A DNA stretch of 64,000 nucleotides, taken from Candidatus Bathyarchaeia archaeon. GTDB lineage: Archaea > Thermoproteota > Bathyarchaeia > 40CM-2-53-6. This document shows, one piece after another, positions 1,446 to 37,549 of this stretch. A program made the translations under genes and the position numbers. Each line of letters starts with the position of its first letter. The stretch's first letter is position 1. The notes beneath the pieces were generated by a model, which did no database searches, was not told the DNA's origin, and was given only the letters and a program-made list of their open reading frames with translations. Where the stretch lies: positions 27,626 through 91,625 of the forward strand of contig JBEKGM010000006.1 of assembly GCA_050012795.1 (NCBI GenBank), in the 5' to 3' direction.

Positions 1446-3113
1446 CTATTGAAGTAAGGCTTCTGGTCGAATGTCAAGATTCGGTCCTGCGTTTACAATC
1501 TCTCGTGGGCAATTCGTCTCATACTTTTTGAAGTTCTCGACGAATCGTAACGCAAGTTGTCTGTATTTCTGCAAGTAAATCTCTTTGCTGGGCCAAGATT
1601 CAACGGGGTTCAGAATCTTATCAGGCACTCTCCTGCAGGTTTTGGGAATCTGGAACTGAAAAATCTTGTCCGTCCAATACTCCACTGCAAGGAGTTCCTC
1701 ATTTAGAACCGCGTCCAGTATTGCTCGACTGTATCCGATGCTAATGCGTTCTCCGACGCCATATGGTCCTCCAACCCATCCCGTATTGAGGAGCCAGCAG
1801 TTCACGCCGTGCCGGATGATTTTGCTTCTGATTAGGTCCATGTATACACTTGGTTGGAGGACCATGAATGGCGCTCCAAAACAGGAGCTGAAAGTTGCCT
1901 CCGGCTCCCTCCCAATCTCAACTTCGGTACTCGCAACTTTGGCAGTGTATCCGGAGATGAACTGATACAGAGCCTGCTCAACCGTTAATCTTGCGATTGG
2001 GGGTATGACACCGAAAGCATCGCAGCAGAGGAGAATTATGTTGCTCGGATGTCCTCCACGGCGGCTCTCTACCGCATTCTCAATAAACGCTAATGGGTAC
2101 GATGCGCGGGTGTTCTCGGTGATTGTGTCATCGTCTAGGTCTACAACGCGAGTAACAGAGTCTAGGATCGCGTTTTCTAGGATTGTTCCGAATTCACGTG
2201 TGCAGGCAAAGATTTGAGGTTCAGCTGATGGAGATAGTTTGATTATCTTCGCGTAACACCCGTCCTCAAAATTGAAGACGCCATTGTCATTCCAGCCGTG
2301 TTCATCGTCTCCGATCAGTCGACGTTTTGGGTCGGCTGATAGTGTGGTTTTCCCCGTTCCAGATAGTCCGAAGAAGAGCGCGGTCTTCTCATTTTTGCCA
2401 ATGTTGGCGGAGCAGTGCATTGACATGACTCCTCGCTTAGGCAGGAGGTAGTTAAGCACGGTGAAGATTGTCTTCTTGATCTCTCCTGCATATGCAGTGT
2501 TACCTATTACCGCGAATCTCTGTGCGAAATTGATTACGATGAAGGTCTTCGTGATCGTGCCGTCGATTTGGGGTAATCCTTGAAATGAAGGCGCACATAG
2601 TACAGTGAATTCTGGAAGATGCTGCCTGTACTCCTCTCGAGTGTGTGGTTTCATGAACATGTTTCTGGCGAAGTGACTATGCCAAGCGTACTCGGTGATT
2701 ATTCGAATTGGCATTTGATGTTCAGGATCAGCGCAGACATAGCAATCTTGGACGAAAACATCCCTGCGTTGCAGAAATCCTTGCAATCGACTTACGAGTT
2801 CGTTGAACTTATCAGCGCTATAGGGACGGTTATACTCTCCCCACCAAACATCATTTTCGGTTGATGGTTCCTTAACGATGAACTTGTCAGTTGCCGATCG
2901 AGCTGTATGTTTCCCCGTGGCGACAACTAAGGACCCTGTTCGTGATATTTTCGCCTCCGCGCGAAATATTATCTCCTCGTAGAGCGCCTCGATGGGCAGG
3001 TTCCAGTACACTTCGTTCAAATTTGTTAGACCATGATTTTCCAGTCCGTAGTCGGCCTTGAGCGCTGCAGCTTGTTCCTGAGCGGGGGATTTGAAGTTAA
3101 GGAGATTGTTCAT
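1446..3113 (-). CDS. pckA: Phosphoenolpyruvate carboxykinase (ATP)
   Basis: Kinase-1a P-loop GLSGTGKTTLS, RLIGDDEHGW and overall PckA-like length. I place the start at ATG 3113-3111 (MNNLLNF...), which overlaps the upstream gene's TGA as ATGA. The ORF track extends to 3131. Confidence 0.85.
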   Translation of the reverse strand: MNNLLNFKSPAQEQAAALKADYGLENHGLTNLNEVYWNLPIEALYEEIIFRAEAKISRTGSLVVATGKHTARSATDKFIVKEPSTENDVWWGEYNRPYSADKFNELVSRLQGFLQRRDVFVQDCYVCADPEHQMPIRIITEYAWHSHFARNMFMKPHTREEYRQHLPEFTVLCAPSFQGLPQIDGTITKTFIVINFAQRFAVIGNTAYAGEIKKTIFTVLNYLLPKRGVMSMHCSANIGKNEKTALFFGLSGTGKTTLSADPKRRLIGDDEHGWNDNGVFNFEDGCYAKIIKLSPSAEPQIFACTREFGTILENAILDSVTRVVDLDDDTITENTRASYPLAFIENAVESRRGGHPSNIILLCCDAFGVIPPIARLTVEQALYQFISGYTAKVASTEVEIGREPEATFSSCFGAPFMVLQPSVYMDLIRSKIIRHGVNCWLLNTGWVGGPYGVGERISIGYSRAILDAVLNEELLAVEYWTDKIFQFQIPKTCRRVPDKILNPVESWPSKEIYLQKYRQLALRFVENFKKYETNCPREIVNAGPNLDIRPEALLQ

Positions 3114-4327
3114 AGCCAATCCCTCACGCATTTCCTGTTGCCGATGTAAATCTCATTAGGCGACTCAGGATCAAGTACCCACTTGATTCTGGCGATTCCT
3201 TCTGTAATATCATTCACAGATCCTGCGTAACTCAATCGCAAGCGGCCTTCCATGCCGAATTCTCTTCCTGGCACCGTTACAACAAGCGCCTTCCTTAGCA
3301 GAAGTTCCGAGAGTTCTACAGAGCTCTTATGATAGGCGGAAAAGTCCGGAAAACAGTAGAATGTTCCACCGGGTTTCGTCACCTTAATGCCGTTGAACGC
3401 CTCCAATTCGTTCATGATGATGTTTCGGTTGTTCTCAATGGTTAATCGTAGGCTTTCAACAATACTTTGAATGCCTGTAAGAGCTCCCTCCGCTGCGGCC
3501 TGGAGAACGACTGATGCGCATGATGTGGTCTGAGACTGCACATTCGTCATAATCTTGACAAGTTTCTCTGGCGCAATTGCCCAACCAATTCGAAATCCAG
3601 TCATTCCGTAAAGTTTGGAGATTCCGTTGATCACAATTATTTTGGAATCGTCAATCTCCTTCTCTACAAACGCATAACATGGGGCGGGTCTCCTTCCGTC
3701 GAACACGAGCTTGTGGTAAATGTCGTCAACTATTAGGTAGATGCCTTTGTTTTCGCAAAACGTTACAAGTTCTTTCAAGAACTCATCAGAAAAAACAAGA
3801 CCAGACGGATTGTTTGGGCTGTTCACGATGATTGCCTTCGTAACGGAACTGACTGCTTGCACGATATCCTTCATACGAGGGTGGAGACCGCCATCCTCAG
3901 GGGTGACTATTACTGGAATTCCTTGCACCATCTTTACCATCTCGGGGTAGCTGACCCAGTATGGAGCAAGGATTATGACCTCATCTTGTGGGTTTAGCAA
4001 AGTGTACAGGACGTTGAAGATTGATTGCTTTGCACCAGAGGATACAATCACGTTATCAGGGTCCGGAATCCTGTCATAGTTCTCTTCAGTGTAATCGATG
4101 ATTGCTTCCTTAAGAGAGAGGATCCCATCGGTTGGGGAGTACTTGATGTCTCCGGTGTTCAGTTTCGCAGCAGAACTAAGGATGGCGTTGATCGGAGCTT
4201 TGTTCTTCGGTTCGCCTATTCCAAGATGAATTACTGCTTCCCCGCGTTGTTTCAGTCGCTCCGCTTCCTCGTTCATTAGCAGAGTGGGCGATTCGGATAT
4301 TGACCTAGCGACGTAGTTCAGACTCAA
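3110..4327 (-). CDS. Class I/II PLP-dependent aminotransferase (aspartate/aromatic type)
   Basis: 405 aa with IHLGIGEP, NSPNNPSG and the PLP-lysine context SKLYGMTGFRIGW. TTG start. The stop overlaps the pckA start (ATGA). Confidence 0.8.
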   Translation of the reverse strand: MSLNYVARSISESPTLLMNEEAERLKQRGEAVIHLGIGEPKNKAPINAILSSAAKLNTGDIKYSPTDGILSLKEAIIDYTEENYDRIPDPDNVIVSSGAKQSIFNVLYTLLNPQDEVIILAPYWVSYPEMVKMVQGIPVIVTPEDGGLHPRMKDIVQAVSSVTKAIIVNSPNNPSGLVFSDEFLKELVTFCENKGIYLIVDDIYHKLVFDGRRPAPCYAFVEKEIDDSKIIVINGISKLYGMTGFRIGWAIAPEKLVKIMTNVQSQTTSCASVVLQAAAEGALTGIQSIVESLRLTIENNRNIIMNELEAFNGIKVTKPGGTFYCFPDFSAYHKSSVELSELLLRKALVVTVPGREFGMEGRLRLSYAGSVNDITEGIARIKWVLDPESPNEIYIGNRKCVRDWL

Positions 4328-4705: not shown

Positions 4706-5176
4706 ATGACCACCATACTGGACCCCAAGGACCTGCAAATCCTTAGGATAATCCAAGAGAATTGTCGCCTCACATCTCGAGAGATTGCTGACAAGATTGA
4801 TTCACCCGTCACGACGGTATTCGCGAAGATAAAGCGCTTCGAAAAACTCGGATTAGTTAGCGGCTATCACGCCGTCCTGAACGCTAACAAATTAGGCGCG
4901 GCCACTACAGCGTTCATCTTCGTCTCATTTGCACATAAGGGCGATAGAGCACTATCGCATCGGATAGTAGCTAAAGAGATTGCACGCTTCCCGGAAGTCC
5001 AAGAAGCTCATATCGTTTCAGGGGAATGGGATTTCCTGATTAAGGTTAAGGTGAAGGACGTTGATGCCGTAGGCAAGTTCGTTGTGGATGAGCTTCGATT
5101 ACTTAGAGGAATTGAAAAGACTCAAACATGCTTCGTGTTCGAAACTGAGAAAGAATCCGCAGCAATTCCGCTTTGA
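4706..5176 (+). CDS. Lrp/AsnC family transcriptional regulator
   Basis: 156 aa. N-terminal HTH (LDPKDLQILRIIQENCRLTSREIADKI) plus a C-terminal RAM/AsnC_trans_reg-like domain (EAHIVSGEWDFLIKVKVKD). Confidence 0.85.
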   Translation: MTTILDPKDLQILRIIQENCRLTSREIADKIDSPVTTVFAKIKRFEKLGLVSGYHAVLNANKLGAATTAFIFVSFAHKGDRALSHRIVAKEIARFPEVQEAHIVSGEWDFLIKVKVKDVDAVGKFVVDELRLLRGIEKTQTCFVFETEKESAAIPL

Positions 5177-5245: not shown

Positions 5246-6211
5246 CTATGCGGTTCCGAAACTGACTCCAAGCTGTTTCAGCCATTTTCTGTACGCAATG
5301 GACATTCGGTCAGATTTTAAGTGAAGTTCGGTCTGCAGATCCAGAGGTAAGAGTTCGGGTCGTTGTGATTCTACTACGGGGATATCTTGACTGACAATCT
5401 TATTCTGGAAATTTCGAATCTCCTCCGATTGGTCATGCGCATAGTCCATCGCGATCAGCATCCAGCCTATGCTCTCCACCTGTTCGACCGGAGTAACAGT
5501 GAGGAAGAGCCCGTAATGTTTTTTCGTGGATTCCTTAGCCAATGTCGCGGTCAAGCATCGAAGAACGCGATAAGTATACTTCACCAGCGAGGGGTTGCCA
5601 GTTCCATCGGGGTCAGGTTGCCAAATGGCAATATTCTTGGCTGTAACTCCATTCTCATCGATTACAGGTTCATAGTCCGCTATTTCTGGCCGGTTTGGAT
5701 CTCCCAGAAGGCCCTGGTGTACGAATGGAAGATGAGACACGTCGAGAAAGTTTTCGATAGCACGTGGGCCGCTGGCTTTGTAGTAGTAAGGGCCGCACGA
5801 GACTTTCAAGTATGATGGATCATCCCACTCGGGAAAACTGGGAACATCAAATCTTGGGTCTCCTAAAGAAGCCCAAACTAGACCATACCGTTCCTTAGCC
5901 TGGAACGTTCTCACTTTGGCTTTTGCGGGTGGTCTCTGCTCAGGGTGCGCTGGGAATCTTATGCAATTTCCCTCTAGCTCGTAGACCCATCCGTGATAGC
6001 GGCAAGTAATCGTCTCGTCCTTGATCCATCCTAATGAGAGCCGCGTTCCACGATGTATGCAGAGATCCTGCCAGACCTTGACTTCGCCTCTGCAACGCCA
6101 GAGAATAAGATCCTCGCCAAGCAACCTAACAGCGGAGATTCTACCTTCCACGACATCTTCAGAACGCGCAACGACGTGCCAGTCGTTGGCTAGGATTGGA
6201 TCGCTAAGCAC
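5246..6211 (-). CDS. Rieske [2Fe-2S] non-heme-iron oxygenase, alpha-subunit type (VanA/PaO-like demethylase or hydroxylase)
   Basis: Rieske ligands CIHRG...CRYHGW. Mononuclear iron motif ENFLDVSHLPFVH (D-x2-H-x4-H). At 321 aa the size fits single-component VanA-like oxygenases. Confidence 0.75.
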   Translation of the reverse strand: MLSDPILANDWHVVARSEDVVEGRISAVRLLGEDLILWRCRGEVKVWQDLCIHRGTRLSLGWIKDETITCRYHGWVYELEGNCIRFPAHPEQRPPAKAKVRTFQAKERYGLVWASLGDPRFDVPSFPEWDDPSYLKVSCGPYYYKASGPRAIENFLDVSHLPFVHQGLLGDPNRPEIADYEPVIDENGVTAKNIAIWQPDPDGTGNPSLVKYTYRVLRCLTATLAKESTKKHYGLFLTVTPVEQVESIGWMLIAMDYAHDQSEEIRNFQNKIVSQDIPVVESQRPELLPLDLQTELHLKSDRMSIAYRKWLKQLGVSFGTA

Positions 6212-6336: not shown

Positions 6337-7704
6337 CTAGCAGGCGATACCCAGACCTTCCAACTCTTTTCTTACCTCATCGTACAGTTTTCTCCATTCT
6401 TCTGAGGGTTGGATCGTCTTCAAATCATAACAGTCTTTGAACGGTTTGCCTGGGTTTGGATTGACCAACTTATCCTCGTACTTTGGGAGGATCTTGTTCA
6501 AGACGTCGTTAGCATCCTCTCGCTTCATTCCCGCAGTAGCGTGAGCGACCTCACCTAGGAGCCGAACTTCCAATCCTGTGTTGTGATCAGGATGTTTCCC
6601 CCCCGTAGATCCGACTCCTTCTGTCTGCATTGCTGCCACCGAACTCACCATCCCATCACAGGCAACTTCATAGAGCAATTCTCTAGTAACCGGACCGTTA
6701 GCACAGTAGCAGTCATAAAAACTGAAAATGTTAGTATTCCGCGACAAGGCTTGACCGACTACAGCCCCAGCCCATAGACCCCACCTATTCGCGTTGTTAA
6801 GAAAACGTACGTGTGTGTGGCTCATATGATGAAAGATGGCATGATGAATTACCGTCCCGATCAGATGTTCCGCAACTGAAACGATAGCAACACCTTCGGC
6901 ACCAGGTGCATATCCCCCAATTATCGGGGTCATCAAGTTGTAGATAAAAGCGCCATAATCAAGGAGGAAGGCCGCTATAGAAAGATGATCGTAATCTACT
7001 TTCATTTCACACATTTGAGAGACGATGAGTCCGTCCGAGGGACGAATGCCGCTTATGGGATCACAAGAACAAATCTTCGCTTGGGAAGTCATCGCTGCAG
7101 CGTTGTCGGCAATGTGCAGGCCAGGTCTACCTGCCCTATGGGCCGCCTCACGTGCCCATAGCATAGCATTTCTCGCACCGAGAATCTCAAGGGGTGATCC
7201 TGTGAGAACCCTCTCTCCTCTAATCGTTTGAAGGGATCCTGCCTGAAAAGCATTCACGACTGGTTCTTGAGCAATGCTTTGGAGATTCTTCACATAAAGT
7301 TCCCCCTCCGACACGAGAGTTCCTGTCGGTCCTCCGAGGATCATTGGCGGGTTGGGATCTTCAACCGTCCGCTTTCGCGCCACGACGGAGTCTTGGCCGC
7401 ACCCTACGCGAACTTCACTTGGGAGGTATCGCAAAACTTCCTTAACTTCCTGCTCGCTAAATATGATGCGTCTTTCGGTGTCCAAGCAAAGGGCTCCTAG
7501 GTCACAAAAGAGGTCGAAGCCGGCTTTGTAAACGTCATCGACAAGGCTGTTATCAGTTGGAATCAGAACTTTCGGATCGTATTTGATGTCATACTCTCTG
7601 ATCAGTGACATGATCTTCTGGGTCACCAGAGAATCAAAGTCGCTTGGCTTGCAGAAGGGTCCCTTCTGCGCCCTCTCACATGTTTCCATCAGCCTATTTT
7701 GCAT
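6337..7704 (-). CDS. Monomethylamine methyltransferase (MtmB) family protein, pyrrolysine-free
   Basis: 455 aa uninterrupted ORF. Blocks match my recollection of Methanosarcina MtmB: AGRPG, PIIGGYAPG, GLEVRLLGEVAHATAG and GKPFKDCYDLKTIQPSEEWRKLYDEVRKELEGLGI. The position aligned to the MtmB UAG/Pyl residue is Ala199 (GCC, 7108-7110). Confidence 0.8.
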   Translation of the reverse strand: MQNRLMETCERAQKGPFCKPSDFDSLVTQKIMSLIREYDIKYDPKVLIPTDNSLVDDVYKAGFDLFCDLGALCLDTERRIIFSEQEVKEVLRYLPSEVRVGCGQDSVVARKRTVEDPNPPMILGGPTGTLVSEGELYVKNLQSIAQEPVVNAFQAGSLQTIRGERVLTGSPLEILGARNAMLWAREAAHRAGRPGLHIADNAAAMTSQAKICSCDPISGIRPSDGLIVSQMCEMKVDYDHLSIAAFLLDYGAFIYNLMTPIIGGYAPGAEGVAIVSVAEHLIGTVIHHAIFHHMSHTHVRFLNNANRWGLWAGAVVGQALSRNTNIFSFYDCYCANGPVTRELLYEVACDGMVSSVAAMQTEGVGSTGGKHPDHNTGLEVRLLGEVAHATAGMKREDANDVLNKILPKYEDKLVNPNPGKPFKDCYDLKTIQPSEEWRKLYDEVRKELEGLGIAC

Positions 7705-7785
7705 TCTAATAGCCCCCCCTATGCGAGACTTCCCTATGGAACGTGGATTGTTTTAGTCTATCGCCAATTGAAGCGTTGACTGATA

Positions 7786-8502
7786 ATGTTCGGTATCGTT
7801 TTCTGCATAGAACGTTTAAATTGGAACCGGGAATCAACCGACTTGGTAGGCATTTTGCGGTCTGAGGAAGAAATTTTCAAGGACCTCAAAGAAGCAGTCT
7901 TGAGATATGATAAAGACTCGGCGACGAAGTGTTCCGAGGAGGTCCTGAGTCGTGGTATAGATCCCTTGAAGGCGATAGAGAACGGCCTAGCTAGAGGGAT
8001 GAAGGAGATAGGTGACAAGTTTGGCACTGAGTGTTTTCTGACGGATCTAATCCTCGCGGCTGAAACGATGAAGACTGCGATGGCAGTGCTCGAACGAGGG
8101 ATGAAAGTTGGGGTGAGTGAACGAATGGCGGGTACTGTGGTTATTGGAACCACGAAGGGCGATATTCACGATATAGGAAAGAATCTTGTGTCAATCATGC
8201 TCGCGGCTGGTGGATTCAAAGTTATTGATCTTGGAGTTGATGTCCCCTCTGAGACGTTTATTCACAAGGCTGAAGAGACGAGAGCCCACATAATTGCCTG
8301 CTCTGCGCTCCTCTCAACGACTATAGGGTATATGGACGAACTAATCCGCTTGCTCAAGGAACTCGGATCGAGGGAGAAATACAAGGTTATGGTCGGGGGA
8401 GCACAAGTAACCGCGGCCTTCGCCAAAGAGATAGGTGCCGACGGCTACGCCGAAGAAGCAGCCCAGGTTCCGACCTTGGCCAAACAGCTCCTTGGAACAT
8501 AG
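7786..8502 (+). CDS. Corrinoid (cobalamin-binding) methyl-carrier protein, MtmC/MtbC/MttC-like
   Basis: B12-binding motif GDIHDIGKNLV, then SALLSTT and MVGGA, preceded by an N-terminal helical cap. The true start may be a TTG near 7842-7854 (ILRSEEEIFKDLKEAV...), because the first ~20 aa of the track ORF look non-native. Confidence 0.85.
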   Translation: MFGIVFCIERLNWNRESTDLVGILRSEEEIFKDLKEAVLRYDKDSATKCSEEVLSRGIDPLKAIENGLARGMKEIGDKFGTECFLTDLILAAETMKTAMAVLERGMKVGVSERMAGTVVIGTTKGDIHDIGKNLVSIMLAAGGFKVIDLGVDVPSETFIHKAEETRAHIIACSALLSTTIGYMDELIRLLKELGSREKYKVMVGGAQVTAAFAKEIGADGYAEEAAQVPTLAKQLLGT

Positions 8503-13366: not shown

Positions 13367-14341
13367 TTATCCGGATGTGAGCTGAAAACTGAGAACTTTC
13401 TTATCTCCGATATTGACGATTGCTCCCTTGAGTATACCTTCAGGGTATTCGCTGCCAGGGTTAATCACCAGTGTTCTTCCAATCCTGGTGGTTCCTCTGG
13501 ATTCATGGACATGACCGCATAGGTGTACTAGCGGTTGGTGCTTTTCGACCTCGCGACGAATTGAGGTACTGCCCGCCCCAAACATGACTGCCTGACCACC
13601 CACAAAGACGGGCTTTGGCGGATAGACGGAGTCGTCCAGTTTCGGGACCGTATCTAACCCGCAGTCTACCGGAGGTACGTGAATGTTAAACACACAGTTC
13701 TGCTTATCTGATACAGAAGAAACGAGCTTCTCTGTTGCTGCTTCAAGCTCTTCTTCACTATGGTCCCGCGGACATTTCCAGGGAGTTGGATTGCTCCATC
13801 CCAAGTTCACCATTTCGTGAAGCTCATCAATCTTGACAACTTTGTTATCGGCGTTCTTCACATGAGGAGTATCTCGGATGGCATCGATAATTTCTTGATA
13901 ATCATCATTTCCACCCGTCAAATAACACGTCACACCTAACTTGGAAAGAAAGGGTTCGGCAAAGTCAACCCATTTTGTCAGAGTATCCTTCATGATGGTC
14001 ATGAAGAGTTTGTCCACTTTCTCTTTGGACGCGTTAAGCTCTTCCATCTCTGCCTTGCTGCAATGATAGTAGTAGTAACCACTGTCAGATATCTCTCGCT
14101 CCAAAGACTTTACCTCTTCGGTTCCGTGCAACGTTTTTCCACCCATATAATCCGCTTTGAACGACCCGTCGCCAAGGTCTACTATTGGAACAAGCATCTT
14201 ACCAGTAATGTCTCCTCCAAGAACTAGCACCTCCACTTTGTAGAATTTAGCAGCGCTTAGCAACTTCTCGAAACATTTTCCCGAACCATGTAAGTCCGTT
14301 GCAAAGAACATCTTTGTGAATTTCTTATCTGGCATGCGCAT
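13367..14341 (-). CDS. Metallophosphoesterase (calcineurin-like)
   Basis: Motifs FFATDLHGS, VLGGDITGK, TGGNDD and CGHVHE. Confidence 0.75.
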   Translation of the reverse strand: MRMPDKKFTKMFFATDLHGSGKCFEKLLSAAKFYKVEVLVLGGDITGKMLVPIVDLGDGSFKADYMGGKTLHGTEEVKSLEREISDSGYYYYHCSKAEMEELNASKEKVDKLFMTIMKDTLTKWVDFAEPFLSKLGVTCYLTGGNDDYQEIIDAIRDTPHVKNADNKVVKIDELHEMVNLGWSNPTPWKCPRDHSEEELEAATEKLVSSVSDKQNCVFNIHVPPVDCGLDTVPKLDDSVYPPKPVFVGGQAVMFGAGSTSIRREVEKHQPLVHLCGHVHESRGTTRIGRTLVINPGSEYPEGILKGAIVNIGDKKVLSFQLTSG

Positions 14342-21933: not shown

Positions 21934-23151
21934 CTAACTTAGACGACTCCTACGCCAAGACTGAATCATCGTAAGGAAATTATCCCAGTTCGTGTCCTCA
22001 TACAGCGTGTCTATTGCTCCGAGAATGAATCCGCTCTTGGGCGCGAGGATTCTGATCGAGTCCTCCACCGCCTTCGTGACCCCCTGTTTGCTTCCGGTGA
22101 GTGTGACCGCGGAGTTGACGCCTCCCCAGATGCAGATCTGATCACCAATTACTCCTTTGATTTCCTTCAAATCCGCGTTGCCTTGCACTGGGTCGACTCC
22201 GTACAGTATGTCGACACCCATTTCTTTGAAAATATTCAAGAAGGGTTTGAATCCTGTCGTCATTATGTAGCAATACTTTGCACCTGCACGATGAGCGAGG
22301 TCCACCTCCTTCTTTATCCTTGGGGCGAGAAATGTTCTGTAGAGTTTTGGTGACCAGTAATATTCGTACCAGCCCCGATGCACGACCATATCGCAACCTC
22401 CGAATTGCGTAATCAACCGGATGGATTGCAAGCTCCAGGTTGAGATCACGTCAAGCAATCTGTGTAATAATTCAGGGTTCCTAGCTGCCATGATGATCGA
22501 GTTCTCTAATCCACAAAGCCAGCCTAGTGCATCACCCAGGAAGATGCTGTCGCCATCAATCCACTCAGGGCTAGCTAACGTGTCTCCGCATTCGACGAGA
22601 ACTTTGTTCTTCCTCGCGAAGTCTGTGACTTGCGTCACATGCTCTTCAAACCTGCGAAGCTGAACCTCGTTAAGTTCTGAGAAAAGGCAGGACAACGCTT
22701 CAACATCGTCTATTGTCTCCACTAGGTACTTTTTCGACCTGCCTCTTGGAACCACGTAATCAGTGAATATGGGGATGTTATCTCCATGAGGCCAGTCGGC
22801 GGTTTGGCGTACAATTTGTTTGAGCGTACCTTTAGGCGTCTTATATTCCTGGAACAGGAAAGCTTGTGATTCTCCTGGCAACACTTCTTTCCGACGCGTG
22901 ATCTCAACTTCTGAGGAGAAGGATCTTGGAATATCGAACCCTACGGTGTCGTCTAGTCCTAATCTGGTAGTCTTTGTTACTCGTTCAAACTGGTCTCTCC
23001 ATCCGTCTTTTTGGTTGGATAAGAATCGACGTTGCCAAAATTTCTGGCAGAATGGAACATGATCTGTTTCCGAATGATTGATTGCGGATAAGAGCCTCTC
23101 CTTCGACGAGAGATTATCAGTCATTCGCTGGCCCCGTGGTTGGCAATTCAC
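21934..23151 (-). CDS. Uroporphyrinogen-decarboxylase (URO-D) family protein, function unknown
   Basis: 405 aa with a URO-D/MtaA-like N-terminus (SSKERLLSAINHSETDHVPF) and overall pattern. Last gene of the SBP1-led minus-strand gene string. Confidence 0.55.
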   Translation of the reverse strand: MNCQPRGQRMTDNLSSKERLLSAINHSETDHVPFCQKFWQRRFLSNQKDGWRDQFERVTKTTRLGLDDTVGFDIPRSFSSEVEITRRKEVLPGESQAFLFQEYKTPKGTLKQIVRQTADWPHGDNIPIFTDYVVPRGRSKKYLVETIDDVEALSCLFSELNEVQLRRFEEHVTQVTDFARKNKVLVECGDTLASPEWIDGDSIFLGDALGWLCGLENSIIMAARNPELLHRLLDVISTWSLQSIRLITQFGGCDMVVHRGWYEYYWSPKLYRTFLAPRIKKEVDLAHRAGAKYCYIMTTGFKPFLNIFKEMGVDILYGVDPVQGNADLKEIKGVIGDQICIWGGVNSAVTLTGSKQGVTKAVEDSIRILAPKSGFILGAIDTLYEDTNWDNFLTMIQSWRRSRLS

Positions 23152-23171
23152 ATTTGGAAGGTGGAGCTTCC

Positions 23172-23987
23172 TTAAATTCCGAAGACGCTTCTGAGTGATT
23201 CACGTCCGGTCGCGGCGACTTTCTCTGGTTCCTCTTCCCAATATGAGGGTCTCAGCAATTCAAGGCTCAGAAAACCGTCATAGTGTAACCTAGCTAGGTC
23301 GGTCGCAAGCTGTTTGAGATCAATCACTCCTTCTCCCGGGTAGAGGCGATTCACGTCACGCAAGATGGATCGATCGCCGGGTTCGGAGTCATTCACATGA
23401 ACTATGAAGATTCTATCTCTGTCGGTCTGATTCATCTCACTCAATTGTGATCCGCTTAGGTAAAGATGAAATGAATCAAGCACTAGACCAACATTCTTCC
23501 TATTCACAGTCTTTACTATCTCTACAGCATCTCTCAGGTTGTTCACGCTACACTCTTTCATTCCCAAGAATTCCAGGCCAAGGTTGATGTCTTCACCGCA
23601 GGCATCGGCCAGTTGGGCGAGGGATTCTGCGGTCTTAGCATGTACCTCATCAGCGGTCATTCCGTTTTGCGTTGGCGACGGAACTGGTTCCAAGAGGTTG
23701 CAGTCTAATTCTCGGGCGGCCTGTGCGAGTTTTCGGGTGCGTTCGCAGATTTCTGAGAACTGGTCTTTGTTGAGTAGGTTGAAGTTTTCCGGGCCCATAA
23801 TGCTTGCGACTGTAAGCTCATTTGCTTTTATCTGGTCGGCCAAAGCTTTCAGCGAGTTGCGAGCGATTAGCGGTTCCACTTTGTCTTGTGCTAGTTCGAC
23901 TGCTACGTATCCCGTCTTCTTGGCGATTGGGATGAAGGACTCTGTAACAGTGCTCTTAAGAGTGTCCTGGTTGAGGCACGGTTTCAT
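23172..23987 (-). CDS. Xylose-isomerase-like TIM-barrel protein (sugar phosphate isomerase/epimerase family)
   Basis: 271 aa with the family pattern ...GYVAVEL..., LVLDSFHLYLSG and IFIVHVNDS...PGEGVIDL. Confidence 0.75.
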   Translation of the reverse strand: MKPCLNQDTLKSTVTESFIPIAKKTGYVAVELAQDKVEPLIARNSLKALADQIKANELTVASIMGPENFNLLNKDQFSEICERTRKLAQAARELDCNLLEPVPSPTQNGMTADEVHAKTAESLAQLADACGEDINLGLEFLGMKECSVNNLRDAVEIVKTVNRKNVGLVLDSFHLYLSGSQLSEMNQTDRDRIFIVHVNDSEPGDRSILRDVNRLYPGEGVIDLKQLATDLARLHYDGFLSLELLRPSYWEEEPEKVAATGRESLRSVFGI

Positions 23988-23996
23988 TTGGGTCGA

Positions 23997-24989
23997 TCAA
24001 CTCCTCAACGGCAGTTGGACTGGTTTTCCAGTCTGGTTCGCTCTGTAGCATGCTTCGATTATCTCGATTGTCTTGTAGCCGTCTTCGACTGTCACGGGCG
24101 GATTCTTCTTACTGACCAACGCGTCGACGAACAGTTGGTCCTCTTCTTCTACACCCCATGTACTAGTCATGGGGAGGTAGTGGAATTCTTCGGTTTGAGT
24201 TGGCAGGTCTAGGCCCAGCGTGTAGCTGATGCGATTCAGCTCCTCAGTAATTGCGCAGCAATGATCGCCAATCACTTCAACTCGTTCGAACGGAATTATC
24301 CATGAGGCGTGTCCTGAAGAGAAGATGGGAACTTCTAAGCCGGACTGATGCTTCAGCGTTATCCAGAAATCGTTGAGCATGGCGGGGTATACGTTTGCTT
24401 CAGCTCGGCATCTCACTTCTGCGACTTCGCCGAATAGCCATCTCGCCATGTCCAGCATGTGAAGTGTTGTGTCGTATAGGTGGCCTCCAGAAATCTTGGG
24501 GTCAGCGCCCCACGCAGGACGTTGTAGCTCTCCGGTGACCATTTTAATTATTACCATGTACGGCTTGATCCTGGATGAGATCAATTCTTTTAGTTTCTTA
24601 TAGACGGGCGAGAAGCGGCGGTTATGTCCAACTTGAAACACAACCCCAGTCGTCTTCACCATATCCACCAATTCTCGGGCATGATCTAGGTTGATTACCA
24701 TGGGTTTTTCGCAGAAGATGTTGAGCCGCTTCGATAGCGCGTAGTTCAGAGTCTCGTAGTGGTAAACATTCGGGGTTACCAAGTATATTGCGTCGAGCTG
24801 TTCCGTATCGATAAGGTCGTGGTAATCCTTGTACTTCGCGCAATTGTACCTCTTAGAAGTATATTCTGCAATTGATTCCACTACGTCTGCCACACCCGCG
24901 ATTCGGACCCGTTTGTCTCTGGAGAGGACTGACAAGTGGTTTTGGGCTTGTGAACCAAGCCCTATGACTCCTACGTTTAATGTCAACAT
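23997..24989 (-). CDS. Gfo/Idh/MocA family NAD(P)-dependent oxidoreductase
   Basis: N-terminal Rossmann segment (LNVGVIGLGSQAQNH) and the EKP motif (IFCEKPM). Confidence 0.8.
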   Translation of the reverse strand: MLTLNVGVIGLGSQAQNHLSVLSRDKRVRIAGVADVVESIAEYTSKRYNCAKYKDYHDLIDTEQLDAIYLVTPNVYHYETLNYALSKRLNIFCEKPMVINLDHARELVDMVKTTGVVFQVGHNRRFSPVYKKLKELISSRIKPYMVIIKMVTGELQRPAWGADPKISGGHLYDTTLHMLDMARWLFGEVAEVRCRAEANVYPAMLNDFWITLKHQSGLEVPIFSSGHASWIIPFERVEVIGDHCCAITEELNRISYTLGLDLPTQTEEFHYLPMTSTWGVEEEDQLFVDALVSKKNPPVTVEDGYKTIEIIEACYRANQTGKPVQLPLRS

Positions 24990-25170
24990 TTAGCCACCGT
25001 TAGAATGCTCAGACGCAGAAGAGATTATGATATAACTTGTGTCTCTGGTTCTCCACTATGCCGTTTTCGGCTCATGACGAATTGAATTCTTTCTCGATTC
25101 TTCCTCGTGAATTCACGCGCGGCTAGCTCAACTTTAGGGGGACCTCACACGAAAATGATTCCCAGGCCAG

Positions 25171-26337
25171 TTAATATGCCAAATTTTCCTTCATGATTCT
25201 CGCGTATTCTCTGTACTGGTCTAATGGGATGTTTGTTGGGACGTCGTGATCCAGTCCTGGGATGTAGCCTCCCATCTCCTTGAGTATTGGCACCTTCGAT
25301 TCAACCTCCTGTCTCACCACGTGTTCTCCTTGATCCAGTTTCGCCTTGTCCAAGTTCCCGACGAGAAACAGTTTAGTTCCGTACTTCTTTCTCAGGGTTA
25401 GAGCGTCCATTCCTGCATTAACTTCAAGGGGCCAGTGGCCGGTGATTCCTGCTTCGACTGCTAGGTCAAGGATAGCATTAGTGTTTCCGTCGCTGTCCAT
25501 CATTATTCTATCTATCTTATTCTTCTTGAGAAAGCTCGTGACCTTTTTGTAGTGAGGAAGGAGAAATTCCTTGTAGAGTTTAGGCGAAATATTTGGCCCA
25601 TGCCTTTCTGCGAGGTCTTCCCACCAGAATACTGCGTCAATCTTGTCTTTCAGTGACTCGATGGCGTCCCGATAGGTCGCTATTGTGAAGTATTCCCAGT
25701 ACTCTGCCATCCGCTGGATGAGTTCAGGGTTCCTGTAGAACATTTCAACGAACGTTGGTATGCCCATTAGTTGGGCTCCGAAACCGTAGAAACCGCTCAT
25801 GGCTAGCGAAGTGTATCCATCTTGATATTCTTCTAAGGCAAACAGGTAGTCATCTTTCTGCCAGTCTTTTGGGTATCTGGCAGGTGTATTAGGGTTCAGG
25901 AGTTTTGTGTATGCCTCCCAACTTTGCCGATCCTTTACTGGAAATTCCAGGAAACGGGGCATGCTGTAAGTTGGATTTTCTACCGTGATGTTCTTCCTGA
26001 CGATCTGACCGGCCCCATTTCGGTAGTCAACATAGCCTGAAGCTCGATTCAGGATCCTTGACTTGAATCTGGGTATCGGCCCGCAGTCTATGGTCAGGAT
26101 TAGGCCCTCTGCTGCCACGCTGCCGAAGTACGAGTGAAGGTTGAAACCCGCAAGCGTTGGTCCTTGAAGAAGAAGGCCCTGTGGCAGGTTTGTGTCCTCA
26201 ACTATTGCCACCTTATCGATAGGCAAGCCTTCTCTAAGCCACCTGATGATAATCCCGTCATTGTACGATTCCATCCAGGGCAGCATGTCGGGTTTCCTGA
26301 AGTTCATGACGGCCTTCACCCTCTCTCTGGCTGTCAT
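25171..26337 (-). CDS. Uroporphyrinogen-decarboxylase (URO-D) family protein, function unknown
   Basis: 388 aa. N-terminus MTARERVKAVMNFRKPDMLPW and ISPKLYKEFLLPHYKKV resemble the URO-D/MtaA family. The protein has only one Cys, so an MtaA-type His/Cys/Cys zinc site is impossible. Confidence 0.55.
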   Translation of the reverse strand: MTARERVKAVMNFRKPDMLPWMESYNDGIIIRWLREGLPIDKVAIVEDTNLPQGLLLQGPTLAGFNLHSYFGSVAAEGLILTIDCGPIPRFKSRILNRASGYVDYRNGAGQIVRKNITVENPTYSMPRFLEFPVKDRQSWEAYTKLLNPNTPARYPKDWQKDDYLFALEEYQDGYTSLAMSGFYGFGAQLMGIPTFVEMFYRNPELIQRMAEYWEYFTIATYRDAIESLKDKIDAVFWWEDLAERHGPNISPKLYKEFLLPHYKKVTSFLKKNKIDRIMMDSDGNTNAILDLAVEAGITGHWPLEVNAGMDALTLRKKYGTKLFLVGNLDKAKLDQGEHVVRQEVESKVPILKEMGGYIPGLDHDVPTNIPLDQYREYARIMKENLAY

Positions 26338-26401
26338 GTCCGTCTCTTCTCGTTCACTTCGCTCAAGAGATCGTGTTACAACCTGTCCGTTCGGTTCAGG
26401 A

Positions 26402-27418
26402 TCATTTCGTCTTCATTTCGTGATGAATTGTTATTGCTCGCTTTTTCTCAGCAGATTCACGCGCTGCTAACGCAACCTGAAGGGCGGCATGACCTTCTTC
26501 AACCGAGACAGGTGAATTTCCACCTTTTGAGACATAGTCACAGAATCCCTGGATTTCGCTTCTGTAGGCTTCCGCGAACCTTTCGATGAACCATGGACAC
26601 GGCTGCTTCGTGGCCCCCTGTCCTCTCCAGAGTTCCATCGACTCCTTTCTCAGATTATCAACATGGACCGCACCCTGGTCGCCCAGAACTTCGGTTCTTA
26701 GGTCGTACCCGTATCTAGAAGTCCGGCTTCCCTCAACGACGCCCAAACCGCCGTTTCTAAATCTCAAGACGGCGACGGCATTGTCAAAGTCGCCATATTT
26801 CGCGAACTGAGGATAAACTAGTGTTGTTCCCGTCGCCCAGACCTGCTCCACTTCACTGTTCATGAACCAGAGTGCTATGTCGATGTCGTGTATGCATTCA
26901 TCTACGAAAATGCCTCCGCTTCGTCGAATATACTCCTCTGGAGGAGGCTGTGGGTCGCGCGCGCAAGTTTTGACCAAGATCGGTTTGCCGATCCTGCCCT
27001 TCGCAATCATCTTCTTCGCCTTGCTGTATCCTAAATCAAACCGTCTGTTGAAACCAAGTTGGAACTTGACTCGAGATCGTCGGACTGCTGAAACAATCTT
27101 ATCTGCCTGATTCAAATTGAGTGCTATCGGTTTTTCAAGGAGCATAGGTACATTTCTCTCAGAAGCTAATTCTACATGTTCCGTATGCATTTGGGTGGGC
27201 GTCGCGATAACTACACCGTCCAGTGATTCCTCTCTCAGCATCTTGATTGGGGTCTCATACATGCGGCATTCCAATTTTTTCGCTGTGGCGCTTGCTAACT
27301 TCTTTATCGGATCAGCAACAGCGATCAACTCAGCTTTCTCTGTGCTTGCGCGGATGTTGGCTGCATGTAAGTATCCAATACGTCCCACTCCCCAGACTCC
27401 AATTCCAAGCCGTCTCAA
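26402..27418 (-). CDS. Gfo/Idh/MocA family oxidoreductase (inositol-2-dehydrogenase-like)
   Basis: LGIGVWGVGRIGYLHA Rossmann segment and LLEKPIA motif. 338 aa. Confidence 0.8.
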   Translation of the reverse strand: MRRLGIGVWGVGRIGYLHAANIRASTEKAELIAVADPIKKLASATAKKLECRMYETPIKMLREESLDGVVIATPTQMHTEHVELASERNVPMLLEKPIALNLNQADKIVSAVRRSRVKFQLGFNRRFDLGYSKAKKMIAKGRIGKPILVKTCARDPQPPPEEYIRRSGGIFVDECIHDIDIALWFMNSEVEQVWATGTTLVYPQFAKYGDFDNAVAVLRFRNGGLGVVEGSRTSRYGYDLRTEVLGDQGAVHVDNLRKESMELWRGQGATKQPCPWFIERFAEAYRSEIQGFCDYVSKGGNSPVSVEEGHAALQVALAARESAEKKRAITIHHEMKTK

Positions 27419-29758: not shown

Positions 29759-31117
29759 CTACGACACGGCTTGCAGTGAATCTTGTGCCGCTTTCAGTGT
29801 CATGTCTATATCGTCCTCTGTGTGTGCGGTGGATACGAACATGTGTTGGTACTGTAGCGGGTGAACTAGGACCCCTCTCTTCAGCATCTCCCTATGATAA
29901 CGGGTGAATCGGGCCCCGTCGCATTCGAGAAACTCCCTGTAGTTTGTGATCTTCTTCAGCGAGGTGAAGTAGATTTGAACACCACACTGGGCCAGGCCTT
30001 GAACTATAGTTTGGGTTCCGCTCGCATCCGCGATCCGCTTAAGTCCATCCTGCAACTTCGTTCCGACTTTCCGAAGGTGCCTGTAGCAGGCTCCGTCGTT
30101 TGCCGTCAACTCCGTCAAGGTTGCGCATGCGGCAGCGCAGCAAAGTGGATTTCCATTGTACGTTCCCGCGTGCATGATGCTTCCTGGGCCGACTTCGTTG
30201 AAAATCTCCCTCCTTCCCGTTATCGCGGAAATTGGAAATCCTCCGCCTAGGGCCTTTCCGAAACAGGCCAAGTCGGCTTCTACGCCGAAATGTTCCTGGG
30301 CTCCTCCGGGAGCTAGTCTGAAACCGGTTATGACTTCATCAAAGATCAATAATACGCCATGCTTCGACGCGATCTCTCTAGCTGACTCGAGGTAGCCTTC
30401 GTTGGGGGGAGCAACCCCAATGTCCATTGAAACTGGTTCCATTATAATGGCAGCAAGTTCATGTTCGTGTAATCTAACGGTCTTCTCAAGTAGTTCTATA
30501 TTATTCCAGGGCAGGACTATCGTATTCTTTATCGTGTCATCAGGAATGCCTGGTCCAGCTCTCACCTTGTACGGAGACACTTCGGAGCCTAATGCGGACC
30601 GTGGAGAGCCAACGATGTTGAGTAGAACATAATCGTGAGCACCATGATAGTGGCCTTCGAATTTCACGATCTTGTCCTTACCAGTGTATCCCCTAGCGAT
30701 TCTTATTGCATGCATCGTAGCCTCGCCCCCCGTGCTAGAAAACCTGATCATTTCTGCGTTTGGAATAATCTCGTGAATCTTCTCTGCAAGTTTGATTTGA
30801 AGTTCATCAAGCATCGCGTACTGAACCCCCTTCTCCAATTGAGCCTTCACCGCCTCCAGAACGGAAGGGGGAGAATGCCCCAGGATCAGCGGACCAAAAC
30901 CGAGAAGATAATCCAAGTAGACATTATCATCTGCATCCCAGATTCTTGATCCTGCGCCCTTCTTGAAAGTCAACGGATATGGCTCGTATGTAGGGTAGCA
31001 TTGCGCATTCGAGCTCCCGCCACCGGGGATAAGTCGCTTAGCTCTAACAAAGGACTCCCAAGATCTGCGAGTGTTCAAACCTTCAACATACTCACGATAA
31101 TCATCGTTCGTGCTCAA
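29759..31117 (-). CDS. Class III PLP-dependent aminotransferase (HemL / glutamate-1-semialdehyde aminomutase-like)
   Basis: 452 aa with LIFDEVITGFRLAPGG and FGKALGGGFP (PLP-Lys context) typical of the HemL-like subgroup. Confidence 0.75.
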   Translation of the reverse strand: MSTNDDYREYVEGLNTRRSWESFVRAKRLIPGGGSSNAQCYPTYEPYPLTFKKGAGSRIWDADDNVYLDYLLGFGPLILGHSPPSVLEAVKAQLEKGVQYAMLDELQIKLAEKIHEIIPNAEMIRFSSTGGEATMHAIRIARGYTGKDKIVKFEGHYHGAHDYVLLNIVGSPRSALGSEVSPYKVRAGPGIPDDTIKNTIVLPWNNIELLEKTVRLHEHELAAIIMEPVSMDIGVAPPNEGYLESAREIASKHGVLLIFDEVITGFRLAPGGAQEHFGVEADLACFGKALGGGFPISAITGRREIFNEVGPGSIMHAGTYNGNPLCCAAACATLTELTANDGACYRHLRKVGTKLQDGLKRIADASGTQTIVQGLAQCGVQIYFTSLKKITNYREFLECDGARFTRYHREMLKRGVLVHPLQYQHMFVSTAHTEDDIDMTLKAAQDSLQAVS

Positions 31118-31266
31118 TTGACTTCAAGCAGAGGGGTTAACGCCCGCTTAAAAGCCTCATCAATTCTCGTGATTAAACCGGTTGACTGGGAAACTCACTT
31201 GGGAGTTACGATTAGCATAAACTCGAACACGATGATGGTCGTCAATCATCCAAAGAGTATTAAGAA

Positions 31267-32727: not shown

Positions 32728-32758
32728 TAATGATACGTAAGAGGCTCCAAATAGGAAG

Positions 32759-33415
32759 CTATGAACTCATCAGCTGCTTGAAAACGGCAACCGAATCGAC
32801 TGCGTTGTCGCTATAGCCATCTGCACCCATTTCCTTCGCTAGTTTGGGTGTGACGGCAGCTCCGCCAACAGCCACCTTTAGACCCCGCCGGATTCCATTC
32901 TTCTCTAACGCGTCAACTACGATCTTCTGTTCAGGGGCAGACGTGGTGAGTAGGGATGACATGGCGATTATGTGGGGCTTCTCTTCCTTAACTTTCTCTA
33001 GGAATCTTTCCGGAGGCACATCTACACCTAGGTCCTTAACGTCAAACCCCGCCGCTTCGAGCATGACGATGACGAGGTTCTTTCCCATGTCATGGATATC
33101 CCCACGAACTGTGCCAATCACCACAATCCCCGTTGCTTTCCGCTCTAACCTTTGCGCCGCCAGAAGCGGTCGAAAAACCTCAATACCTGCTTTCATTGCC
33201 TCTGCTGCCAAAACGAGTTCCATGACGAAGGCTTCGCCAGCTTCAAACTTGTCTCCTATTTCGCGTATGCCCTTGGAGAGCCCATTCTCAATCGCCTCGA
33301 CTGGATTGACTCCGAGTCGAACTGCCTCCTCGGCAGTTGCCCGCGCGCTATCGACGTCCAAGTTGACCACCGCGTTTCTTAGCTCTTCAATGATATTGGA
33401 GTTGGAGCTCACCAA
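32759..33415 (-). CDS. Corrinoid (cobalamin-binding) methyl-carrier protein
   Basis: 218 aa with a cap domain plus GDIHDMGKNLV...MSSLLTTS...VAVGGA. It lies 75 nt downstream of the OppF-like gene on the same strand. Confidence 0.85.
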   Translation of the reverse strand: MVSSNSNIIEELRNAVVNLDVDSARATAEEAVRLGVNPVEAIENGLSKGIREIGDKFEAGEAFVMELVLAAEAMKAGIEVFRPLLAAQRLERKATGIVVIGTVRGDIHDMGKNLVIVMLEAAGFDVKDLGVDVPPERFLEKVKEEKPHIIAMSSLLTTSAPEQKIVVDALEKNGIRRGLKVAVGGAAVTPKLAKEMGADGYSDNAVDSVAVFKQLMSS

Positions 33416-33490
33416 GAATACACTTCGCTCAGTCTTGCCTTCTTACGGATATCACTCTTGTGTCTAGTTGCAATCTCAGTCTTTGAATCT

Positions 33491-36424: not shown

Positions 36425-36433
36425 GATTGAATG

Positions 36434-37456: not shown

Positions 37457-37490
37457 TTGTTTGGTCTGCTACCTCAACTTGACAGTTTTG

Positions 37491-37538: not shown

Positions 37539-37549
37539 CGCGATCATTT

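Follow-up and report, generated by a model that had tools for sequence, protein, structure and literature searches.

A pyrrolysine-free MtmB homologue paired with a corrinoid protein

The 64-kb window analyzed here, a stretch of 64,000 nucleotides from contig JBEKGM010000006.1, encodes a homologue of the monomethylamine methyltransferase MtmB that lacks pyrrolysine (Pyl), together with a corrinoid protein and a conserved set of neighboring genes (Table 1). The open reading frame (ORF) list and translation give the methyltransferase gene an ATG start, 455 codons, and the terminal TAG as its sole stop, with no stop codon inside the frame. Its product matches the Pfam family PF05369 at E = 5.2e-106 (355.6 bits against a cutoff of 25), with residues 6 to 453 covering profile positions 4 to 450 of 450, and a phmmer search of the PDB aligns residues 9 to 453 with residues 13 to 456 of Methanosarcina barkeri MtmB (1L2Q/1NTH; E = 1e-76) at 32 to 33% identity. 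We generated an AlphaFold2 model from a 16-sequence alignment (predicted local distance difference test [pLDDT] score, 88.5; predicted template modeling [pTM] score, 0.91), and Foldseek superposed this model on 1L2Q/1NTH with a template modeling (TM) score of 0.95 and a root mean square deviation of 1.6 to 1.7 Å over 453 columns. The assignment of this ORF to the MtmB family is not due to chance. A first-pass annotation of the sequence had placed the ORF in this family across the whole barrel, and the end-to-end match to PF05369 and the superposition on 1L2Q agree; every sequence block that it quoted is present, namely, GRPG at residues 192 to 195, GGYA at 263 to 266, GEVAHATAG at 384 to 392, and the C-terminal region GKPFKDCYDLKT...P.EE. 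The profile search and the structural comparison with Methanosarcina MtmB thus bear out the family, the fold, and the correspondence between Ala199 and Pyl202 discussed below.

The corrinoid gene lies head to head with the methyltransferase gene across an 81-bp spacer. The complete, divergently transcribed DxHxxG protein described in the first-pass annotation is indeed there, with a B12-binding_2 domain (E = 4e-18), a B12-binding domain (E = 3e-25), and the motifs DIHDIG (residues 126 to 131), SAL (173 to 175), and GG (204 to 205). Translation probably begins at a TTG codon at position 7843, giving a protein of 219 amino acids, because relatives are called at 215 to 219 amino acids and their alignments start at residue 22 to 28; a TTTAAA sequence lies 23 to 28 nucleotides upstream of this codon. 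The protein scores 198 bits against the MtxC model TIGR02370 (cutoff, 215.3) and 199.8 bits against the NCBIfam MtgC models (cutoff, 310), and its score against the pyl_corrinoid model, ∼198 to 200 bits, is also under the cutoff. Judged by these models, it is near the defined MtxC subfamilies yet outside them.

Components that would complete a corrinoid methyl-transfer system would have to be encoded elsewhere. Among the 52 window ORFs scanned, none matched the RACo/RamA, MeTr/pterin-binding, or MtrH families, in keeping with the earlier statement that no second methyltransferase (MT2) and no RamA-type activase are visible nearby. No canonical MT2, activase, or Rieske reductase is encoded in the module or anywhere else in the 64-kb window, within which we also found no pylTSBCD, MtbA, or RamA gene. 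An Rfam scan detected no riboswitches or other RNA elements near the module. Two ORFs of the URO-D family, 14 to 18 kb from the methyltransferase gene, were considered as the missing MT2 and rejected, with a best MtaA/CmuA score of 27 bits against a cutoff of 235; in the PDB one has no match and the other has a marginal match to uroporphyrinogen decarboxylase. These proteins (405 and 388 amino acids) are very divergent, with only their C-terminal halves matching the family, and they lie among GFO/IDH/MocA oxidoreductases and a xylose-isomerase-like TIM-barrel protein.

Table 1. Features of the 64-kb window, by position in the window
Feature	Position	Strand	Evidence
Pyl-free MtmB-family methyltransferase (methyltransferase component 1, MT1), HIAD clade, 455 aa	6337..7704	-	PF05369, PDB matches, AlphaFold2 model
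Ala199, GCC codon, opposite Pyl202 of M. barkeri MtmB	7108..7110	-	HMMER and MAFFT alignments
Cognate-type corrinoid (B12-binding) protein	7786..8502	+	PF02607 and PF02310
Rieske [2Fe-2S]/VanA_C non-heme-iron oxygenase	5246..6211	-	PF00355 and PF19112
Divergent adenine-deaminase-family amidohydrolase, 611 aa	9458..11293	-	PF01979 and PF13382
APC-superfamily permease (AA_permease_2), 515 aa	11651..13198	+	PF13520 (E = 5e-15)
Conserved hypothetical protein, 258 aa	8619..9395	-	No Pfam or NCBIfam match
Metallophosphoesterase, possible peripheral module member	13367..14341	-	Weak PF14582/PF12850 matches
Lrp/AsnC-family regulator next to Rieske gene, possible regulator	4706..5176	+	PF01037 and PF13412
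Aspartate aminotransferase and phosphoenolpyruvate carboxykinase (PEPCK) genes	1446..4327		
URO-D-family ORF	21934..23151		
URO-D-family ORF	25171..26337		
Region holding the URO-D-family ORFs	21934..27418		
Region of the MttB-type pair	29759..39493		
Pyl-free MttB-superfamily protein	31267..32727	+	9YCE/2QNE (E = 4e-59)
Second corrinoid protein	32759..33415	-	47% identity to first corrinoid protein
Inositol-type catabolic cluster	39735..54582		
IolN equivalog (3-dehydro-scyllo-inosose hydrolase)	45536..46645		318 bits vs cutoff 245
Flavin adenine dinucleotide (FAD)-dependent oxidase, sarcosine/N-methyltryptophan oxidase family	55949..57121	-	150 bits, below cutoff
Four ORFs (145 to 451 aa), then HEPN/AbiV-domain protein	57261..62662		No family match for the four ORFs
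tRNA gene, 111 nt	59783..59893	-	Rfam, 40.5 bits
Second ARAGORN tRNA call, 75-nt intron	60107..60257		No Rfam support
HEPN/AbiV-domain protein	62150..62662		

Placement in the MtmB family and the Pyl position

A search of 1.84 billion representative proteins returned 1,038 MtmB-family representatives, 236 of them at E ≤ 1e-30. The closest relatives of the window protein, which we refer to as the HIAD clade, comprise 12 clusters at 76 to 97% identity, all with the loop GRPGLHIAD[ND]A, and beyond an identity gap follow homologues at ∼50% that carry GRPGMHINDVAV. A scan of 185,579 species, each represented by a single genome, that was seeded on two conserved family peptide motifs did not recover this clade; the 97 relatives that it returned, none above 54% identity to the window protein, belong to Methanomethylicia/Methanosuratincola, Moorella naiadis, many Anaerolineae and other Chloroflexota, and a small number of further groups. 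In a neighbor-joining tree, the HIAD sequences nest within a superclade defined by an HI[N/A/G]D loop, beside archaeal Methanomethylicia sequences, and M. barkeri MtmB falls elsewhere, with two representatives ∼41% identical to it. The nearest relatives outside the clade, which we call HIND (Methanosuratincola/Methanomethylicia, Anaerolineae, other Chloroflexota, and Moorella naiadis; 41 to 54% identity), resemble the window protein in the loop GRPG[ML]HI-x-D-x-A, in having H197, D200, D331, and Y333 invariant, and in an adjoining corrinoid gene, but they have Asn at the Pyl position where the window protein has Ala. HIND members are uncharacterized and are annotated as monomethylamine methyltransferases. 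The window protein is a member of an uncharacterized and rare subclade of a known family, in an unusual conserved context. One HIAD member (L087; GCA_035622575.1, DASPVB010000223.1) is labeled “Ca. Acidoferrales bacterium” and sits on a contig of 52.7% GC that carries a 2-oxoacid dehydrogenase complex; in view of the archaeal hints in the window (see below), this label may reflect mis-binning or gene transfer.

HMMER and MAFFT alignments agree in setting GRPGLHI-A-DNA of the window protein against GRPGMGV-X-GPE of 1L2Q, where X is Pyl202. The lack of an in-frame UAG and the presence of a GCC-encoded Ala199 at the Pyl site, both claimed in the first-pass annotation, recur in the alignments and the translation. 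Pyl202 of MtmB is anchored to a β-strand of the barrel (PMC9842639), and Ala199 is on barrel strand 197 to 199 in the AlphaFold2 model. When the window protein and the 12 clusters were aligned, the site held Ala in 12 of 13 sequences and Gly in the other, which rules out a hidden TAG or a sequencing error, and GCC is three substitutions away from TAG. Of 51 stop codons in the window, 19 are TAG, more than of either other kind. The replacement of Pyl by Ala, the headline of the earlier description, is not special in itself: nearly any residue is found at the aligned position across ∼140 family representatives (L, G, V, I, A, T, S, N, C, and others).

The pyrroline ring of Pyl in M. barkeri MtmB is reportedly surrounded by E205, E229, E259, and Q333, and the residues aligned opposite these in the window protein are A202, I227, L257, and D331. 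H197, D200, D331, and Y333 are invariant across the HIAD and sister HIND clades. Because the residues said to surround Pyl are replaced and these four are invariant instead, the pocket appears to be remodeled under selection and not decayed.

A Rieske oxygenase, a deaminase-like hydrolase, and a permease are conserved beside the pair

The Rieske gene lies 125 bp downstream of the methyltransferase gene on the same strand. Its product is 41% identical to SxtDIOX over the full length (E = 6e-79, residues 3 to 320) and similarly close to SxtT (E = 2e-77), followed by NdmA (E = 8e-45) and NdmB (E = 2e-35), and it keeps the Rieske ligands (C51-x-H53...C70-x-x-H73), the iron motif DVSHLPFVH (residues 157 to 165), and the aligned Asp of the QDI motif at residue 276. 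SxtT and GxtA/SxtDIOX are saxitoxin hydroxylases, and NdmA and NdmB are methylxanthine N-demethylases; the window protein shares their ligands as well as full-length likeness, but its gene is surrounded by no saxitoxin or caffeine cluster, has no NdmD-like reductase nearby, and is accompanied by a corrinoid methyltransferase pair instead. That the Rieske protein might donate electrons to reactivate the corrinoid was an idea we set aside on general grounds, as the potentials of Rieske clusters are far above that of the Co(II)/Co(I) couple.

The amidohydrolase scores 367 bits against the adenine deaminase model TIGR01178 (“ade”), below the equivalog cutoff of 472.5, and aligns over its whole length with the Agrobacterium adenine deaminase 3NQB (E = 1e-66). 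The motifs HIHIES, DLHE, TDD, and HDHH are conserved, as are the HxH, E, H, and D metal ligands, but GPCG is found where His214 of Atu4426, which we take to be one of the metal ligands of adenine deaminase, aligns. For the families of both the Rieske protein and the amidohydrolase, the substrates known so far are purines or purine-like guanidinium heterocycles. The permease has no PDB or NCBIfam match and no characterized close relative.

We retrieved 11 metagenomic loci of the HIAD clade, seven at 97 to 100% identity to the window methyltransferase (L001 to L007) and four at 76 to 79% (L087 to L090). The pair of MtmB homologue and corrinoid protein is retained in all 11, and each of the nine loci long enough to show them also has the Rieske and deaminase-like genes; the permease is reached in six (L001, L005, L007, L087, L088, and L089). 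In the more distant group, the amidohydrolase is 81 to 85% identical (L087 to L090) and the permease is 77 to 89% identical (L087, L088, and L089). Gene order differs between the groups, the Rieske gene lying behind the MtmB homologue in the window and behind the corrinoid gene, with a gap of ∼57 to 157 bp, in L087 to L090, where the MtmB homologue is divergent from the corrinoid and Rieske genes. The clustering survives this rearrangement, which argues for a functional link. The conserved Rieske, deaminase-like, and permease genes beside the pair are the strongest feature of the locus and one that the first-pass annotation missed. Its view of the pair as a working substrate-specific methyltransferase (MT1) and carrier, as opposed to a relic, accords with retention of the pair at every related locus, and the two genes apparently encode a working Pyl-free MT1/carrier pair.

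Conservation of other neighbors is more uneven. The hypothetical gene is kept at 95 to 100% identity in L001 and L004 to L007 and at 77% in L088. A copy of the metallophosphoesterase gene at 80% identity is directly upstream of the deaminase-like gene in L090, with copies at 94 to 100% in L001, L005, and L007. The Lrp/AsnC regulator is present at 94 to 100% identity in L001 to L007 and absent from L087 to L090, confining it to the close sub-lineage. Beyond the Rieske and Lrp genes, the window and L001 carry the aspartate aminotransferase and PEPCK genes; L005 and L006 (97% identical) have neither there, and CBS, luciferase-like, and DAO genes follow directly. Relatives of the aminotransferase and PEPCK genes occur at 69 to 78% identity, those at 69 to 75% being from Bacteroidota, Chloroflexota, Methylomirabilota, and Bathyarchaeia, which suggests that these may be a recently moved gene pair.

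Neighborhoods of the sister HIND clade

We clustered all ORFs of 79 sister-clade loci, annotated the commonest neighbor families, and, for 67 loci, counted the genes that lie no more than 6 kb from the HI[N/G]D gene. A corrinoid protein was encoded near the HIND gene in 61 of these and a Bmp/PnrA-family ATP-binding cassette (ABC) importer in 38 to 42, followed by a GntR/UTRA regulator (16 loci), a RACo-type activase (15 loci), a xanthine-dehydrogenase-like molybdenum enzyme (11 loci), an adenosine/guanine-deaminase-type amidohydrolase (DadD-like; 10 loci), a MeTr-like MT2 (9 loci), and a Rieske oxygenase (1 locus). Neither an ADE-like hydrolase nor an APC permease was found in any of the 67. 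The Moorella naiadis locus (L056) combines many of these parts, in the order PnrA-like substrate-binding protein, corrinoid protein, MtmB homologue, MeTr-like MT2 (methyl-tetrahydrofolate:corrinoid methyltransferase; 304 bits against a cutoff of 259), 5'-deoxyadenosine deaminase (equivalog; 707 bits against a cutoff of 522), and XdhA/XdhC-like proteins.

Demethylase, deaminase, and ring hydroxylase thus appear to recur together in both clades, assembled from non-homologous parts: as predicted from the annotations, the anaerobes use a molybdenum hydroxylase and a DadD-like deaminase, and the window lineage uses an O2-dependent Rieske oxygenase and an ADE-like hydrolase. It is mainly because of this non-orthologous parallel between the HIAD and HIND neighborhoods that we propose a methylated purine-type substrate.

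The Bmp/PnrA-type importer is also present in a cultured methanogen, Methanosuratincola petrocarbonis LWZ-6 (L009; CP130488.1), an organism that grows on and reduces monomethylamine (PMC12244365). In L009, L010, L013, L033, and L060, the HIND gene is usually in tandem with a second Pyl-free MtmB paralogue with another loop (e.g., GRPGISFIAAESS), and the tandem pair lies behind one corrinoid gene and adjoins a Bmp/PnrA-type ABC importer. Positions 4998 to 14120 of L060, from an Ardenticatenaceae metagenome-assembled genome, encode two MtmB homologues, two corrinoid proteins, a Rieske/VanA_C protein, and then a PnrA-like ABC transporter; the Rieske/VanA_C gene directly follows the second corrinoid gene and constitutes an independent link between a Rieske protein and this methyltransferase family.

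Relationship to characterized methyltransferases

The first-pass annotation stated that no substrate had been assigned to any Pyl-free MtmB, and this has been overtaken by work on MtqB of Methanococcoides methylutens Q3c, a non-Pyl MtmB homologue that demethylates tetramethylammonium and choline (Kashyap et al., Front Microbiol, March 2026, PMC13044021). MtqB methylates cob(I)alamin with tetramethylammonium, choline, and, weakly and without Pyl, monomethylamine (11 nmol/min/mg), and in the accompanying tree of 1,061 MtmBs, most are non-Pyl and of unknown function (PMC13044021). Pyl-free MtmB homologues are therefore a large and already known group, and the earlier claim of novelty is out of date. 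A published substrate, which the first-pass annotation had listed as grounds for abandoning that claim, exists at the level of the family, in the form of MtqB, and none has been published for the window's own clade.

MtqB resembles the window pair in being Pyl-free, in its length of ∼459 amino acids, and in having its own corrinoid protein (∼216 amino acids) alongside, and it shows that non-Pyl members of the family can demethylate substrates beyond monomethylamine. However, MtqB is reported to share a clade with Methanococcoides and Methanosarcina sequences close to the Pyl-MtmBs (PMC13044021), whereas the window protein groups with Methanomethylicia and Chloroflexota homologues that have the HI[N/A/G]D loop. 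The partners of MtqB, a methanogen enzyme, are MtbA and RamA, whereas those in the window module are a Rieske oxygenase, an APC permease, and a deaminase-like hydrolase. The species-representative scan found no Methanococcoides or Methanosarcina locus with the active-site loop pattern of the clade, and the representatives nearest Pyl-MtmB sit outside the HIAD/HIND part of our neighbor-joining tree. Together with the published placement of MtqB near the Pyl enzymes, this indirect evidence makes orthology between the window protein and MtqB improbable. M. barkeri MtmB shares with the window protein the family, TIM-barrel fold, length, GRPG strand with its key residue, and a DxHxxG partner, but it has Pyl202, encoded by UAG, where the window protein has Ala199, and the host of the window is not an evident methanogen and has no MtbA or RamA gene nearby.

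The non-Pyl MttB superfamily, with MtgB for glycine betaine, MtcB for carnitine, MtpB for proline betaine, and MthB for phosphocholine, follows a parallel evolutionary logic, as a Pyl family in which many Pyl-free members have moved to other N-methyl substrates, using MtxC-type corrinoid proteins. It is a different family (PF06253), with barrel-level likeness to the window protein (TM score of ∼0.5). The window also holds a second system that the first-pass annotation missed, consisting of a Pyl-free MttB-superfamily gene whose product is closest to the glycine betaine methyltransferase MtgB and scores 390 bits against TIGR02369 (cutoff, 525), and a convergent gene for a second corrinoid protein; this pair is flanked by a class III aminotransferase and an Opp/Dpp-type ABC transporter. 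The FAD-dependent oxidase further along the window represents another type of N-demethylating enzyme.

Proposed function and alternatives

We hypothesize that the MtmB homologue removes an N-methyl group from a methylated purine-like base in a corrinoid-dependent reaction, a tentative reading drawn from gene context only, to which we give somewhat less than even confidence. The APC permease would import an N-methylated nitrogen heterocycle of the amidine or guanidine type, with a methylated purine base as the most probable candidate; the MtmB homologue would serve as a functional, Pyl-independent, substrate-specific MT1, with the divergent gene encoding its carrier, and would transfer the N-methyl group to Co(I) of the corrinoid protein. 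The adenine-deaminase-like amidohydrolase would deaminate or hydrolyze the demethylated base, and the SxtT/NdmA-like Rieske oxygenase would then hydroxylate it or oxidatively remove a second methyl group. The methyl group would leave the carrier via an MT2, and an activase would re-reduce Co(II), both being encoded outside the module. The substrate class, the order of these steps, and the direction of methyl flow are all part of the proposal. A purine-like substrate is consistent with the closest solved relatives of the Rieske protein, SxtDIOX and SxtT as well as NdmA and NdmB, which act on purine-like cations. A recent preprint measured the conversion of caffeine to methane by N-demethylation under anaerobic conditions but assigned no enzyme to it (bioRxiv 10.64898/2026.01.06.697959), and we found no description in the searchable literature of MtmB homologues tied to purines or to Rieske oxygenases.

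Several observations weigh against this proposal. The substrate proposed for HIAD and HIND members is suggested by their neighbors only. The permease is of the amino-acid/polyamine/organocation type and not a classical nucleobase carrier (NCS1/NCS2); the deaminase-like protein falls under the ade cutoff, seemingly lacks one metal ligand, and may act on a non-purine; and Bmp-family proteins bind several heterocycles, and for one of them the best NCBIfam hit, a weak one, is a putative B6 binding protein. The MT2, activase, and Rieske reductase that the pathway needs are not encoded in the module. The 11 HIAD loci are all from one narrow lineage, such that synteny may partly reflect recent common descent. 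Finally, the growth on monomethylamine of strain LWZ-6, whose locus L009 contains a sister-clade gene, makes a small-amine substrate possible.

A substrate of the kind used by MtqB, a quaternary amine or small organocation such as choline, tetramethylammonium, betaine, or a methylated amino acid, would be taken up by the APC permease and stripped of further methyl groups oxidatively by the Rieske enzyme, as GbcA, Stc2, and CntA do. The only characterized Pyl-free MtmB, MtqB, takes tetramethylammonium and choline (PMC13044021), the AA_permease_2 family typically carries amino acids and organocations, and the MttB/MtgB-like system and MSOX-like oxidase in the window point to N-methyl amine catabolism as a theme of the region. 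The Rieske protein does match GbcA and carnitine monooxygenase weakly, but its likeness to GbcA, CntA, and Stc2 does not extend beyond the Rieske domain (E = 1e-5 to 1e-7), whereas that to SxtT, SxtDIOX, and NdmA spans the whole length (E = 1e-79 to 1e-45). Furthermore, it is not obvious what an adenine-deaminase-family hydrolase would do in the breakdown of betaine or choline, the species-representative scan matched the loop pattern of the clade to no locus from the genera of MtqB, and the representatives closest to Pyl-MtmB, where the published tree puts MtqB, are elsewhere in ours; we consider this type of substrate unlikely. The hydrolase would have a place if it freed methylamine from an N6-methyladenine-type base and the MtmB homologue, as a Pyl-independent monomethylamine methyltransferase, demethylated the product. 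Bacillus subtilis YerA, a member of the adenine-deaminase family, deaminates N6-methyladenine. A YerA fragment (PDB 9JQL) is a weak match to the deaminase-like protein, but the relationship is distant (E = 2e-5) and limited to the C-terminal domain. MtqB has its low monomethylamine activity of 11 nmol/min/mg without Pyl (PMC13044021), and LWZ-6, which reduces monomethylamine (PMC12244365), has a sister-clade gene at 51 to 52% identity; the second, tandem MtmB paralogue of that strain could however explain its monomethylamine use, and the PnrA-type ABC importer at the same locus would be needless for free methylamine. With Pyl and the acidic residues said to surround it all replaced in the window protein, this alternative seems to us quite improbable.

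It is also conceivable, at a very low probability in our estimation, that the neighbors are coincidental or belong to another pathway and that the pair is orphaned, decaying, or engaged in biosynthetic methylation of a guanidinium or purine alkaloid. The 64-kb window lacks an MT2, an activase, and a reductase, the syntenic loci are all from one narrow lineage (76 to 100% identity), and SxtT and SxtDIOX are biosynthetic enzymes. Decay is nevertheless hard to reconcile with ORFs that are intact in every spanning locus, with the exception of L006, where gene calling splits the Rieske gene in two, or with a methyltransferase that is 76 to 100% identical in the clade and has H197, D200, and D331 among the residues invariant across 16 sequences of both clades. 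Coincidence fits poorly with clustering that persists when the Rieske gene changes position, and a permease, a hydrolase, and an Lrp regulator suit catabolism better than biosynthesis. Demethylation of a methylated purine-like base remains the reading that we favor. A broader version of it, in which the whole HI[N/A/G]D superclade (Thermoproteota, Chloroflexota, Moorella, and others) would consist of unrecognized corrinoid-dependent N-demethylases for methylated purines or nucleosides, with a hybrid B12/Rieske-oxygenase nucleobase pathway in the lineage of the window, probably that of an archaeal, oxygen-using soil organism, is possible but doubtful.

Other features of the window

The inositol-type catabolic cluster includes an IolN equivalog, several GFO/IDH/MocA dehydrogenases, xylose-isomerase-like TIM barrels, a PfkB kinase, a Cgl0159-like protein, a PFK-family kinase, and an SBP_bac_5 binding protein. 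The IolN gene could be taken for a “creatininase” and hence a clue to creatinine as a substrate, a candidate that we rejected given its score above the IolN cutoff and its position in this cluster.

The tRNA gene supported by Rfam is missed by standard ARAGORN; with introns allowed, ARAGORN calls it a tRNA-Leu with a 17-nt intron at a noncanonical position and a long variable arm, and the anticodon call (AAG, with a residue other than U at position 33) looks doubtful. A second ARAGORN call lies nearby (Table 1). Shine-Dalgarno motifs are scarce in the window, and this scarcity and the interrupted tRNA gene together suggest an archaeal origin, in agreement with the nearest relatives of the MtmB homologue. 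The four ORFs and the HEPN/AbiV-domain gene that flank the interrupted tRNA gene may be a small mobile or defense island.

Implications for the MtmB family

Pyl-free MtmB homologues are routinely annotated as “monomethylamine methyltransferase,” although MtqB alone among them has a known substrate, and conclusions about methylamine use and methylotrophic methanogenesis, e.g., in Methanomethylicia and Bathyarchaeia, are then drawn from this label. If both the HIAD and HIND clades do act on purine-like substrates, many metabolic reconstructions would need correction, a candidate enzyme would be at hand for the anaerobic N-demethylation of caffeine-type compounds, and cobalamin-dependent methyl transfer and an oxygenase would prove combinable in one pathway. 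The conserved five-gene module yields a short and directly testable list of candidate substrates, and the main value of the locus lies in the testable hypothesis that it provides for a large group of misannotated “monomethylamine methyltransferases.”

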